Assembly (NCBI GenBank): GCA_951406725.2
Contig: OX597832.1
Coordinates: 71,610,001-71,674,000, forward strand
DNA length: 64,000 bases
Source of the DNA: Octopus vulgaris
Taxonomy: Eukaryota
Reading direction: 5' to 3'
Shown in pieces: positions 3,354 to 10,205 of this stretch. The position numbers and the translations under genes were made by a program. The notes under the pieces are model-generated. The model did not search any database and was not told the DNA's origin. It saw nothing but the letters and a program-made list of their open reading frames with translations. The first letter of the stretch is position 1, and each line of letters begins with the position of its first letter.

Positions 3354-4144
3354 AATAAAAGGAATTCTGTAGAATCTTCGTTCAGCTCCATTTCTTCCCT
3401 TCACTAAATAAATATATATATATATATATATATATATATATATATATATATATATATATATTACTTATTTATAATCCACTGATGAAATCTAGAGATTCCC
3501 AGCATAGACGACTTTGTAGTGCTCAAAAGATTCAAACTCCCATTTCTTTACAGAGGATCAATTCCGCGGATAAAGAATAGCTATAAGAGGGGTCAAGTTC
3601 AGTGTATATAGAAGCAATTATGCAGTTAAACGAATTAGATACGTTGAATATAATGCTTCGGCTATGAAATACAAAATACGTATATACATACTAACAGAAA
3701 GAAAGCAAAGAGTGGAGACATTCAGACGACGAGTATTTAAATATAAATATATAGATATTTATATTGATAGATCCAACTAATGCAGTACAAATGACAGAGA
3801 AAATTAAAGGGGTGGAATAACGGTGTTATAAGTCTAACAGCTGCTTCTGGAGGTTGTGAGATCCATCATAACGCTAGATGTAGTTCATCACAATATGCGA
3901 CCGTAATGGAAGCAATCAATATTGGATAAGACGAGCCTCAGTCATCAAGGTAGAAAAGATCTTACAGTTCAGACCTTAATGCAGAGAAGTTCAAAGTTCA
4001 TAATTGCTTACACACACACACACACATATATATATACATACATACACACACACACACATATATATACATACATACACACAAACATATACATACATATATG
4101 TATATATGTATATATATATATATATATATTTATTATATAGAAGG

Positions 4145-4195
4145 AGCTTCTATAGGACTAGAACTGTTTCATTCAAGAGAAATCTTCAGGAAGCT
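4145..4195 (-). ncRNA. Hammerhead motif, family B (left arm; stem III substitution)
   Basis: Reverse complement of 10069-10119, with one change (GTA to ATA) that breaks a stem III pair. Confidence 0.6.
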
Positions 4196-7100
4196 AGTTA
4201 ACAAGAATTGTATTGGCATTTATACATTTAGGCAGGTTTAAAGGGGTGTTGGTGGGGGACTTTTTGGGGGTAGGCATAGCGCAAAATATCATACTTGGGG
4301 GAGTGGTCAAGGAGTCAGTGTTAAATTAGATAGAAGAATAAATAAAAAAAAAAATTTTTTTAAATTAAAATATATATATATATAAAAAAAAGGGGGGAAT
4401 AGAGTTTTAGGTAAATAAGGAGATTCTCACTTATACCTATGCACATATGTATACATATATACACACGCATACAAACATATATACATATACATACACACAT
4501 ACATACACACACATATATATATACATATATATACACTTACACATACATATACATATCTACACATACACATATATGTATACATACACACACTCACATGCAT
4601 ACACGTATACACACATGTATATATACACACACACGACCACACATACATATACACACAGAAAAATATATATACACATACACACACATACTCACATACACGC
4701 ATACACACACACATGCACACACAGCACACTAGTCCCTATATACACATATATACACATACACACATATATACACACACATACATATACATACACATACACA
4801 TATATATATATATATATATATATATATATATATATACATATATACATATGTGTACCTATGCATACCTACACATACACACATATATATATACACATACAAA
4901 TACAGACCCATCCCCTAATTTTAATTTTATTATCTTCGTTTATTACTTTTGTTATCTTTGGCCGCTTGGTCACAAACATCTTGGCTATGACAGCCAGTCC
5001 ATTTATCTGTCTACTGGAAAACAAGCACTCATTCACTCACGCACACTCTTTAGCACGTACACTCACTCATTCGTACACTCATACACATACACGCACGCAC
5101 GCGTTATATTCATACATACATACATCTACATACATTCACGTATATACACATACGTACGCGTACCTACAGATTCATGTCTACACTCTTAGAAGGCTAGTCT
5201 ATCCATATACACCAATAAATATAAATACACACACATACACGTACACCTACATACAAATACATACATGTATATATATATATATATATATATATATATATAT
5301 ATATACATACATATATATATATTCACATATATATACACATATATACATACACATACATACATACACACATATACACATATACACACATATACACATATAT
5401 ACACACATACACATACATACGTATACATACATACATACATCCATTCATCCATACATACATACATTTATACACATACACACACCCACATACATACATATAT
5501 ATACGCGCATATATATATCTATATATATATATATATATACATATACATATATACATATATACATATATATTCATACACACACATACATATACATACATAC
5601 ATATACAAATATACGCACACACATACATACATACTCATATACTCATACACGCACATACACATGTACATGCGTACCCATACACACACACACACATGCGCGC
5701 GTCCATATATACACATAAGTACACCCATGCGTAAAAGTATACATATATCTATGCTTACACATACACACACACACACGCGCCTCCTTATATTCATACTTAC
5801 ATGCATACTCAAAAAATAAGTAAATAGTAAAATATATATACGCGCAGTTATTCATACATGCATACTCAAAAAATAAATGATAAATAATAAATATTAAGTG
5901 TATGTACGTGCAGTTACCTATTATATAGACGGATACATACATATAAACTTACACACATAGATATATATATATATACATATATATATACATATATACATAC
6001 ACACACACACATATATATATATATATATATATATACATATATATACATATATATATATATACATACATACACACACATATATATATACATACACATACAC
6101 ACATACACACATACACATATATATATATACACATATATATATATATACATATACACACATATATATACATATATATACATACACACATACACACATATAT
6201 ACACACACACACATACATACATATATATATATATACACACACATACACACACACACACACACACACACACACACACACACACACACACACACACACACAT
6301 ATATATATATATATATATATATATATATACATACTTACACATGTACATATAAATACACACATAGATAACTCTACGTACCTACATATACATAAACACACGA
6401 GCGTACGCGTATATGTACATATACACATACACATACACACGCATATATATACATACATACATACACATACACACATGTATACACACACACACACATACAC
6501 ACACATATATATACATACACATATATATACATATATATATATACATATATATATATACATATATATATATATATATATACATATATATATACATACACAT
6601 ACACATACACACACATATATACATGTGTGCAAACATACATACATTCTCATACAAGCACACGCACTTACATTTACATATATACACACACTTACACACATAT
6701 ATACATACACATGTACATACATACATACATACGTATATGCATACATACACACACACACACACATATATATACATATATATACATACATACATACACAAAC
6801 ACATACCCATACATATATATACACACATATATATATACACATGCACATACTTATAACTCTACATACTCGCATATACATATATATATATATATATATATAT
6901 ATACACATATACACACACATACATATACCTATATACATGCATATATACACATACATATATATACACATCTACAATTTGTATCTACACTCACATACCTGCA
7001 CATACACATAACTCTACATACCTACATATACATCGACATACTCGCGTACACTCATATATATACACATATATACATATACACACACACATACATATACATA

Positions 7101-10068
7101 TACATATACATATATATAAACATATACACACATAAATACACATATACATATATATACATATATATGTGTGTTTATGTGTGTATATGTTTATATATATGTA
7201 TATGTATATGTATGTGTGTGTGTATATGTATATATGTGTATATATATGAGTGTACGCGAGTATGTCGATGTATATGTAGGTATGTAGAGTTATGTGTATG
7301 TGCAGGTATGTGAGTGTAGATACAAATTGTAGATGTGTATATATATGTATGTGTATATATGCATGTATATAGGTATATGTATGTGTGTGTATATGTGTAT
7401 ATATATATATATATATGTATATGCGAGTATGTAGAGTTATAAGTATGTGCATGTGTATATATATGTGTGTATATATATGTATGGGTATGTGTTTGTGTAT
7501 GTATGTATGTATATATATATATATATATATATATATATATATATATATATATATATGTGTGTGTGTGTGTATGTATGCATATACGTATGTATGTATGTAT
7601 GTACATGTGTATGTATATATGTGTGTAAGTGTGTGTATATATGTAAATGTAAGTGCGTGTGCTTGTATGAGAATGTATGTATGTTTGCACACATGTATAT
7701 ATGTGTGTGTATGTGTATGTGTATGTATATATATATGTGTATATATATATATATGTATATATATATGTATATATATATATATGTATATATATGTGTATGT
7801 ATATATATGTGTGTGTGTGTGTGTGTGTGTGTGTATGAGTGTGTATGTGTTTGTATGTATGTATATATATGCGTGTGTATGTGTATGTGTATATGTACAT
7901 ATACGCGTACGCTCGTGTGTTTATGTATATGTAGGTACGTAGAGTTATCTATGTGTGTATTTATATGTACATGTGTAAGTATGTATATATATATATATAT
8001 ATATATATATATATATATATGTGTGTGTGTGTGTGTGTGTGTGTATATATATATATATGTATGTATGTGTGTGTGTGTATATATGTGTGTATGTGTGTAT
8101 GTATATATATGTATATATATGTGTGTATATGTATATATATATATATGTGTATATATATATATGTGTATGTGTGTATGTGTATGTATATATATATGTGTGT
8201 GTATGTATGTATATATATATATATATATATATATATATATATATATATATGTGTGTGTGTGTGTATGTATATATGTATATATATATGTATATATATATAT
8301 ATCTATGTGTGTAAGTTTATATGTATGTATCCGTCTATATAATAGGTAACTGCACGTACATACACTTAATATTTATTATTTATCATTTATTTTTTGAGTA
8401 TGCATGTATGAATAACTGCGCGTATATATATTTTACTATTTACTTATTTTTTGAGTATGCATGTAAGTATGAATATAAGGAGGCGCGTGTGTGTGTGTGT
8501 ATGTGTAAGCATAGATATATGTATACTTTTACGCATGGGTGTACTTATGTGTATATATGGACGCGCGCATGTGTGTGTGTGTGTATGGGTACGCATGTAC
8601 ATGTGTATGTGCGTGTATGAGTATATGAGTATGTATGTATGTGTGTGCGTATATTTGTATATGTATGTATGTATATGTATGTGTGTGTATGAATATATAT
8701 GTATATATGTATATATGTATATATATATATATATATATAGATATATATATGCGCGTATATATATGTATGTATGTGGGTGTGTGTATGTGTATAAATGTAT
8801 GGATGAATGGATGTATGTATGTATGTATACGTATGTATGTGTATGTGTGTATATGTATGTATGTGTATGTGTGTATATATGTGTATATGTGTGTATATGT
8901 GTATATGTGTGTATGTATGTATGTGTATGTATATATGTGTATATATATGTGAATATATATATATGTATGTATATATATATATATATATATATATATACAT
9001 GTATGTATTTGTATGTAGGTGTACGTGTATGTGTGTGTATTTATATTTATTGGTGTATATGGATAGACTAGCCTTCTAAGAGTGTAGACATGAATCTGTA
9101 GGTACGCGTACGTATGTGTATATACGTGAATGTATGTAGATGTATGTATGTATGAATATAACGCGTGCGTGCGTGTATGTGTATGAGTGTACGAATGAGT
9201 GAGTGTACGTGCTAAAGAGTGTGCGTGAGTGAATGAGTGCTTGTTTTCCAGTAGACAGATAAATGGACTGGCTGTCATAGCCAAGATGTTTGTGACCAAG
9301 CGGCCAAAGATAACAAAAGTAATAAACGAAGATAATAAAATTAAAATTAGGGGATGGGTCTGTATTTGTATGTGTATATATATATGTGTGTATGTGTAGG
9401 TATGCATAGGTACACATATGTATATATATATATATATATATATATATATATATATATATGTGTATGTGTATGTATATGTATGTGTGTGTATATATGTGTG
9501 TATGTGTATATATGTGTATATAGGGACTAGTGTGCTGTGTGTGCATGTGTGTGTGTGGATTTGTGTGTGTATGCGTGTATGTGAGTATGTGTGTGTATGT
9601 GTATATATATTTTTCTGTGTGTATATGTATGTGTGGTCGTGTGTGTATATATACATGTGTGTATACGTGTATGCATGTGAGTGTGTGTATGTATACATAT
9701 ATGTGTATGTGTAGATATGTATATGTATGTGTAAGTGTATATATATGTGTGTGTATGTATGTGTGTATGTATATGTATATATGTTTGTATGCGTGTGTAT
9801 ATATGTATACATATGTGCATAGGTATAAGTGAGAATCTCCTTATTTACCTAAAACTCTATTCCCCCCTTTTTTTTTTTATATATATATATATATTTTAAT
9901 TTTTTTTAATTTTTTTTTTTATTTATTCTTCTATCTAATTTAACACTGACTCCTTGACCACTCCCCCAAGTATGATATTTTGCGCTATGCCTACCCCCAA
10001 AAAGTCCCCCACCAACACCCCTTTAAACCTGCCTAAATGTATAAATGCCAATACAATTCTTGTTAACT

Positions 10069-10119
10069 AGCTTCCTGAAGATTTCTCTTGAATGAAACAG
10101 TTCTAGTCCTGTAGAAGCT
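10069..10119 (+). ncRNA. Type I hammerhead ribozyme motif, family B
   Basis: AGCTTC-CTGAAGA-T TTC tctt GAA T-GAAA-CAG ttctagtc CTG-TA-GAAGCT: 6-bp stem I, 3-bp stems II and III. Confidence 0.75.
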
Positions 10120-10205
10120 CCTTCTATATAATAAATTAATTTTACGCTGCTATGTATTGAGTACCTTATTTACTGTGGTTAACCCCGAATCAACCCGGGA
10201 CCTAC

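Follow-up and report, generated by a model that had tools for sequence, protein, structure and literature searches.

A 6-kb microsatellite-rich palindrome of Octopus vulgaris as a probable head-to-head Penelope-like insertion

Introduction

What does a nearly spacerless palindrome of 6 kb, built mostly of microsatellite and carrying a ribozyme-like motif near each end, represent in the genome of an octopus? The structure occupies positions 4128-10205 of a 64,000-nucleotide stretch of Octopus vulgaris DNA (assembly GCA_951406725.2, contig OX597832.1, positions 71,610,001 to 71,674,000 of the forward strand), which is here called the window and numbered from its first base. Based on its anatomy, we consider it likely that the palindrome is one young head-to-head insertion of a Penelope-like element (PLE) into (TA)n, in which two complementary DNAs (cDNAs) started from priming sites 69 nt apart on one RNA and were joined through the ends remote from these sites. 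The firm part of this explanation is the PLE origin. A preliminary description of the locus had treated the palindrome as a singular oddity; instead, the same layout occurs at seven more places in the window. The layout is that of the textbook head-to-head PLE insertion, and the palindrome is a large case, without an open reading frame (ORF), of an insertion structure that has already been described. What is unusual here is the length of the arms, their microsatellite body, the local density of such units and a hammerhead variant that recurs in three families.

Results

The palindrome and its surroundings comprise the following features.

4110-4129, no strand: left (TA)n target tract, the end of a compound CA/TA repeat that starts at 4009
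4128-7153, minus strand: left or 'short-end' arm, without a tail; by the arm alignment, the sense of the element is the minus strand here
4130-4440, minus strand: left copy of a terminal non-repeat block resembling a pseudo-long terminal repeat (pLTR)
4145-4195, minus strand: left hammerhead-like motif, with an AUA triplet, a stem III broken by the substitution at 4153 and a hammerhead fold of -1.1 kcal/mol
7137-7170, no strand: centre, an imperfect AT-rich junction with its axis at 7153/7154 and three mismatched pairs
7154-10136, plus strand: right or 'long-end' arm, a TG/TA compound microsatellite on the sense strand with short non-repeat islands
9826-10136, plus strand: right copy of the pLTR-like terminal non-repeat block
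10069-10119, plus strand: right hammerhead-like motif, with a CUGAAGA core, GAAA and a GUA triplet ending at 10113
10137-10205, plus strand: tail of 69 nt, at the right end only, ending just past a predicted stem-loop (10177-10202) with an A/C-rich loop
10206-10428, no strand: right (TA)n target tract

Global alignment of 4100-7156 with the reverse complement of 7150-10230 gave 2916 matches and 26 mismatches, which bears out the description of two arms of ~3 kb that meet near 7152 with almost no spacer. The innermost 34 pairs contain three mismatches (7137/7170, 7147/7160 and 7150/7157); the spacer is effectively nil, or 34 nt if exact pairing only is counted. The extra bases at the centre match the C/A pattern of the left, tail-less arm, with C at 7147 and 7157. 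A mask for simple repeats, defined as purine/pyrimidine alternation or homopolymer, covers 70% of the arms as against 22% of the window, and the palindrome is indeed mostly compound microsatellite, as had been stated. Its strand bias is pronounced: the sense strand of 7171-9830 has 479 TG and 40 CA dinucleotides. The tail had been placed correctly on the right only, although it measures 69 rather than 70 nt. (TA)n adjoins both ends of the palindrome, and within (TA)n a target-site duplication cannot be read.

The arms differ by 22 substitutions and 18 indel events in total, and all of these except one substitution fall in masked columns. In the 887 non-repeat columns there are one substitution (at 4153) and no indels, an identity of 99.9%, whereas the 2007 masked columns hold 21 substitutions and the 18 indel events. 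Eleven perfect arm-to-arm runs of at least 100 bp account for 2265 of the 2872 matched bases, and the longest extends over 471. Differences that touch non-periodic bases include a 14-nt piece at 9557-9570, a 24-nt piece near 8855-8878, a cluster at 6462-6480 and an A/T-tract inversion at 4357-4361. The first of these had been reported as an insertion near 9557; the difference is present, but it has AC repeats on both sides and a slippage deletion in the left arm would produce it just as easily. At 4357-4361 versus 9903-9907, a 5-nt A-tract and T-tract are swapped between the arms, which reads as a micro-inversion of the template-switch type.

The right hammerhead-like motif has six base pairs in stem I, three in stem II, closed by U.U, and four in stem III; its hammerhead fold has an energy of -7.3 kcal/mol, compared with -8.5 kcal/mol for the minimum free energy structure. 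Descriptor cores lie at 10075-10113 (+) and 4189-4151 (-), and the stricter descriptor, with an intact stem III, matches the right one only. The AUA triplet of the left motif is due to position 4153, the sole non-repeat substitution between the arms. Judged by its sequence, the right copy has the type I hammerhead core and stems I-III (CUGANGA, GAAA, NUH). The minimal PLE hammerheads of PMC4209133 share this topology, CUGANGA, GAAA and NUH; however, they usually have G10.1-C11.1 and form motif pairs on opposite strands 100-700 bp apart, whereas the palindrome has U.U in that place, a 3-bp stem II, a 4-bp stem III with an 8-nt loop, and a pair 5.9 kb apart. Mismatches at 10.1/11.1 are also seen in two further families of the window: the units at 36273-37089 and 42285-42518 carry U.U and A.A instead of G10.1-C11.1, and the 36-kb motif has a CCGAAGA core. 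Two descriptors together found 12 hammerhead-like cores in the window, nine of them inside the eight palindromic units described below, while shuffled windows contained 0.5 and 0.63 cores each (20 and 30 shuffles). An isolated U3-A8 hammerhead-like motif at 30673-30703 (+) stands directly before microsatellite, outside any unit.

How common is this arrangement? We counted 13 local inverted pairs, namely the 6-kb palindrome, itself dropped by the complexity filter, and 12 others in non-simple sequence. Eight of the 13 are flanked by microsatellite on either side and carry a tail of 31-397 nt at one end only. These eight units represent seven sequence families, the seven other units coming from six other families, and they share one layout: two arms separated by a short or long spacer, with a tail beyond one of the arms only and microsatellite on both flanks.

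31257-32239: tail of 75 nt
36273-37089: tail of 31 nt; outward-facing hammerhead-like pair at 36442-36947
37236-38545: tail of 157 nt; motif (37387-38548) recognised by 96% identity to the 61-kb copy
38645-39290: 3-nt spacer; tail or one-sided extension of 397 nt, with a hammerhead in the extension at 38793-38862, minus strand
42285-42518: tail of 71 nt; outward-facing hammerhead-like pair at 42327-42410
51361-55716: tail of 173 nt; PLE ORF with Hydra-clade motifs
61102-61740: tail of 156 nt; outward-facing hammerhead-like pair at 61318-61676

Outward-facing pairs matched by descriptors are present in four of the eight units, the 6-kb palindrome and those at 36, 42 and 61 kb, and the extension hammerhead at 38793-38862 is well folded (z -3.3 versus shuffles). 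Seven of the units amount to 10,707 bp or 16.7% of the window, the eighth not being counted. The spacers measure 0, 3, 4, 34, 40 and 53 nt in six of the eight, and the short ends are AT-rich in all eight (5-6 of the next 6 bases are A/T). The 37-kb and 61-kb units belong to one family and have identical outer end points and tails of ~157 nt, with arms of about 550 and 245 nt; a diverged solo copy of this family at 3060-3411 ends at the same short end. When the two units are aligned over 234 columns, 10 columns differ with both arms of each copy in agreement, and none is arm-specific except three edge columns. Since copy-specific variants are common to both arms, the arms must derive from one molecule, unless they were later homogenised. 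Two units are clearly asymmetric (31 kb, by 437 nt; 51-55 kb, by ~4 kb), and in both the extra sequence lies on the tail-less arm: the AT skew of the 31-kb spacer is -0.48 versus -0.53 and +0.44 for the arms, and the Hydra-type ORF of the 51-55-kb unit is on the strand of the tail-less arm. The centres at 61454-61540, 37941-37993 and 36675-36714 contain short templated duplications or nested inverted pieces, suggestive of iterative re-priming at the junction.

Five inverted pairs lack the layout and were set aside: 43997-45737 (Tc1-type terminal repeats), 40201/42289, 45716-45921, 60685-61065 and 62258-62300. Across families, tail similarity was clearly significant for the same-family pair only. 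A similarity between the tails of the 6-kb palindrome and the 42-kb unit, one of 21 pairs tested, was reached by 54 of 5000 shuffles, and a possible short inverted tail piece at 3007-3070 by 82 of 5000 in a position-restricted post-hoc test; neither is relied on.

Is the palindrome real? The flanks 3481-4005 and 10561-11300 are unalignable in both orientations (scores of 21 and 23 versus shuffle means of 22.0 and 22.5, reached by 140 and 83 of 200 shuffles), the mirror stops exactly at the end of the element with the tail on one side only, and the window contains no N. The unrelated flanks, the layout in eight units and the copy-specific variants common to both arms argue for a real structure, and a read-mirror artefact is unlikely. 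The preliminary description had come to the same view through the differences between the arms, an argument that we rejected: 21 of 22 substitutions and 18 of 18 indels fall in simple repeats, where sequencing error also concentrates, and therefore they are weak evidence against a mirror. Fold-back chimeras are a known artefact of long reads and amplification, and arms as alike as these outside repeats are what such a read, or an inverted joining of two haplotypes, would leave behind. However, a mirror would run on into the flanks rather than halt at an element end with a one-sided tail, and the end-anchored asymmetry recurs in seven families, with identical end points at two loci of one of them. 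A pure artefact is thus very improbable and already largely refuted. Such palindromes should not be removed from assemblies as read artefacts before their ends have been checked.

A subtler error would leave genuine PLE ends around a centre that the assembly collapsed or mirrored, the true spacer being longer, possibly with an ORF, or the arms shorter. The confinement of all but one arm difference to simple repeats and the self-complementary (TA)-rich middle are compatible with it, PMC8557442 notes assembly trouble from such structures, and PMC7999016 describes long palindromes without a spacer as unstable in model organisms. On the other hand, the window is free of N, the short spacers of five other units lie in non-repeat sequence, which is unlikely to be mis-joined, and some arm differences, the four listed above, remove or alter non-periodic bases. 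We consider a collapsed centre improbable.

PLE coding sequence is found elsewhere in the window. The ORF at 51577-53295, within the unit 51361-55716, has the CxCX5C, CxxC and CxH motifs of Hydra-clade PLEs; its assignment rests on these motifs, as it has no Pfam match and a homolog search with the C-terminal 153 aa returned one unnamed match among 54 candidates. The wider element at 51019-55716 has an asparagine-rich insert in this ORF and, at its left end, an inverted 79-nt copy plus the 173-nt tail; that end in turn occurs twice in tandem, as perfect 301-bp units with (TA)n between them. On the minus strand, 59066-57812 encodes a GIY-YIG domain (Pfam, E 2.2e-6), a CX4CxxC linker and two internal cysteines, and among named homologs the best match is a sequence of Octopus bimaculoides (60% identity). 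From this sequence, 59066-55716 (-) appears to be a 5'-truncated Neptune-like PLE with the end of the reverse transcriptase (RT) and GIY-YIG in two frames. Downstream of its ORF follow 1.1 kb of microsatellite that is TG-rich on the sense strand (274 TG versus 22 CA), a non-repeat block, a hammerhead-like variant with U3-A8 (55984-55952) and (TA)n, the same order and strand bias as in an arm of the 6-kb palindrome, but without sequence homology.

Other mobile elements in the window are a long-ORF retrotransposon without long terminal repeats (LTRs) at 16142-21351 (-; RVT_1, zf-RVT), an LTR-retrotransposon pol region at 25295-27950 (+; RT, RNase H) and a Tc1-type transposase between inverted repeats at 43997-45737. 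The ORF fragment at 11367-11804 (+), 1.1 kb to the right of the palindrome, resembles by eye the pre-endonuclease region of the 51577 ORF and might be a PLE remnant; it has no Pfam match above cutoff. The ORF scan yielded 344 non-repeat stop-to-stop frames of at least 45 aa, 186 of them outside known transposon intervals, and 144 of these plus two arm frames were compared with Pfam. Matches were obtained for two of the 146 (an RT fragment at 12242-12628 and a sub-cutoff DUF3915), and no host exon was recognised among them, although small exons would escape such a scan.

Discussion

How well does a PLE origin account for the palindrome? According to PMC8557442, also the source of the Neptune and Hydra-clade motif descriptions used here, PLE insertions are 5'-truncated and often adjoined at the 5' end by an inverted truncated copy; they carry a tail of 30-40 bp at one end only and hammerheads in the pLTR, and they favour (TA)n. 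Head-to-head repeats with palindromes at the junction are abundant, and 0.9-1.5 kb of host DNA has been found captured beside a pLTR (PMC3846280). In the 6-kb palindrome, likewise, an inverted 5'-truncated copy is joined head-to-head with the motifs outward, the tail is one-sided, a hammerhead-like motif lies near the end and the insertion is in (TA)n. It shares these traits, the palindromic 5' junction and a (TA)n target in which no target-site duplication can be discerned with the insertions of endonuclease-positive (EN+) PLEs (Penelope/Poseidon, Neptune, Hydra and Naiad), and differs from them in having no ORF, arms of ~3 kb that consist largely of simple repeat and a longer tail. It is by anatomy a PLE-type truncated insertion and, as its arms have no ORF, not an autonomous PLE.

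Foldback DNA transposons and miniature inverted-repeat transposable elements (MITEs) also have long inverted arms and insert at TA, and a Tc1-type element with inverted ends lies at 43997-45737. Nevertheless, one end of the palindrome reaches 69 nt further than the other, hammerhead-like motifs are found near the ends in several unrelated families, and within a family the arm length varies while the outer ends are fixed, the 5' truncation pattern of retrotransposition. A foldback element with very long arms is therefore a very improbable source, and so is an inverted duplication by which replication doubled host microsatellite DNA.

If the palindrome is a PLE insertion, how did it acquire two arms? 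In vitro, a PLE protein acts on both strands of an AT-rich target, which it cuts and extends; reverse transcription begins at two adjacent internal sites of the RNA that bound the genomic tail, and hammerhead cleavage is not needed (PMC11167929). The element in that study, Poseidon of Anolis carolinensis (PAc), resembles the palindrome in the two end points that bound a tail downstream of the hammerhead and in its AT-rich target. In both, a predicted stem-loop whose loop is A/C-rich stands before the long end, although folding of our stem-loop is not significant (z -0.03 versus shuffles); the PAc ORF starts within the hammerhead, whereas frames past our motif close in a few codons. By analogy, each cut (TA)n strand would prime one cDNA, one of them starting at 10205 (the long end) and the other at the equivalent of 10136 (the short end), the enzyme being supplied in trans or by the missing 5' part of the same RNA. 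Both cDNAs may then copy one molecule back through the ~2.7-kb TG/TA microsatellite-rich region, stop almost together and be joined head-to-head in self-complementary (TA) sequence. Slippage, during copying or since, would have changed the repeat lengths, leaving a passive and probably unstable genomic relic.

A number of observations weigh against this explanation. At 69 nt, the tail exceeds the usual reported length of 30-40 nt. The arms have no RT or GIY-YIG ORF, their long frames being microsatellite translations and the two scanned arm frames being without Pfam match. Seven non-repeat blocks searched for other copies in the window gave outside matches of 12-16 nt or microsatellite only; the unique blocks, put forward as a route to a parent PLE, have no homologous block within the window. 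As to the motifs, both arms carry U.U where G10.1-C11.1 is usual, Rfam at the gathering threshold has no match in the 64-kb window, and the hammerhead folds no better than shuffles (z 0.04). An Rfam scan of 3200-10300 by E-value contains no hammerhead among the 150 listed of its 283 matches, and those listed (mir-297, mir-3149 and similar), all below gathering and microsatellite-driven, were dismissed as composition artefacts. In view of the Rfam miss and the U.U at 10.1/11.1, we call the motifs 'hammerhead-like': the hammerheads reported at 4145 (-) and 10069 (+) exist as descriptor motifs, the left one having in addition a broken stem III. The 31-kb and 51-55-kb units have no hammerhead match by descriptors. 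Finally, near-symmetric stopping, with spacers of at most 53 nt in six of eight units, is unexpected for independent cDNAs (0.09 in a toy log-uniform model); twin initiation consequently needs the assumption of one RNA whose same end both cDNAs reach, and fold-back explains the pattern equally well.

Fold-back shares the PLE origin. The 3' end of one cDNA would snap back on self-complementary (TA) and copy itself, and the copy would be connected to the other target end, at an AT-rich site that falls 69 nt short of where the first junction lies. Near-zero spacers and identical arms then need no further assumption, the AT-rich short ends of all eight units fit microhomology joining, several centres have small templated duplications, and self-priming was proposed for PLE palindromes in PMC3846280. 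Yet in both strongly asymmetric units it is the tail-less arm that is longer, which fold-back of a tail-bearing cDNA cannot yield. The informative central bases of the palindrome also follow the tail-less arm, the short end is where the solo copy at 3060-3411 stops, and the PLE enzyme extends both strands from two start sites in vitro (PMC11167929). Fold-back is thus a possible but unlikely route, and twin initiation is perhaps about twice as probable.

In L1 twin priming, an inverted segment arises when the second target strand serves as primer for another cDNA on the same RNA. The twin initiation proposed here has the same beginning; in L1, however, the cDNAs cover different parts of the RNA (an inversion), whereas here they overlap almost completely (an inverted duplication). 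A literature search pairing 'Penelope-like' with 'twin priming' gave, as judged by titles, no study of PLE mechanism. The units described here bear on how PLE inverted structures form: which arm of asymmetric copies is the longer separates twin initiation from fold-back.

The insertion is probably young. With the rate of 0.0036 per million years (My) given in PMC13282606, the single substitution in 887 columns corresponds by our own arithmetic to an age of roughly 0.15-0.3 My, and the upper Poisson limit stays below about 2 My; both values presuppose that the arms have not been homogenised. The same paper lists 30 Penelope families with recent activity in O. vulgaris, and palindromic insertions are not discussed in its available text. 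The remark in the preliminary description that long spacerless palindromes are unstable agrees with PMC7999016, according to which recombination in model organisms is strongest where arms are long, spacerless and highly similar.

What are the implications of such a structure at the RNA level? If the locus is transcribed, read-through in either direction would produce a near-perfect RNA duplex of ~3 kb, as had been anticipated from the sequence. Each transcript would contain a single sense hammerhead, and modelling suggests that it would be silenced by duplex pairing, its pairing with the antisense copy having an energy of -90.8 compared with -7.3 kcal/mol for the hammerhead fold. 'Capped by hammerheads' is hence apt for the DNA, which has an outward-facing motif near each end, but not for a transcript; only one that starts inside an arm would leave the hammerhead free. 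Both ADAR and small interfering RNA (siRNA) pathways had been named as possible consumers of the hairpin. ADAR is the likelier of the two, and siRNA production is doubtful, since no dedicated endo-siRNA pathway was found in molluscs by a survey that covered O. bimaculoides (PMC12479628). O. bimaculoides is exceptional both in its rate of hyper-editing and in its loci able to form long near-perfect double-stranded RNA (dsRNA; 4.4e-3) (PMC5625713). Octopus was excluded from the repeat-class analysis of that paper, in which Penelope is heavily edited in lizard. The palindromic Xenopus Harbinger and lizard Penelope repeats that it describes as ADAR substrates are, like the present palindrome, self-folding and need no neighbouring partner; their duplexes are ~100 bp long, compared with the ~3 kb predicted here. 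Neither 'Penelope' nor 'palindrom' occurs in the available text of PMC9989829. Titles in the octopus literature make no link between PLE palindromes and editing, which is weak evidence of novelty as most subscription papers lay outside the scope of the search.

Taken by itself, the locus is a large example of a described structure, and its value is that of a pointer to a genome-wide editing test. We speculate that twin-primed PLE insertions might act in octopus as a genome-wide palindrome factory and as a vehicle that copies kilobases of strand-biased microsatellite, that they might, to a greater extent than dispersed inverted repeat pairs, provide the unusually large supply of near-perfect dsRNA behind octopus hyper-editing, and that their hammerhead variant might tolerate a mismatch at 10.1/11.1; this wider proposal is tentative. 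The density of head-to-head PLE insertions seen in this window makes them a concrete and testable candidate source of octopus dsRNA.

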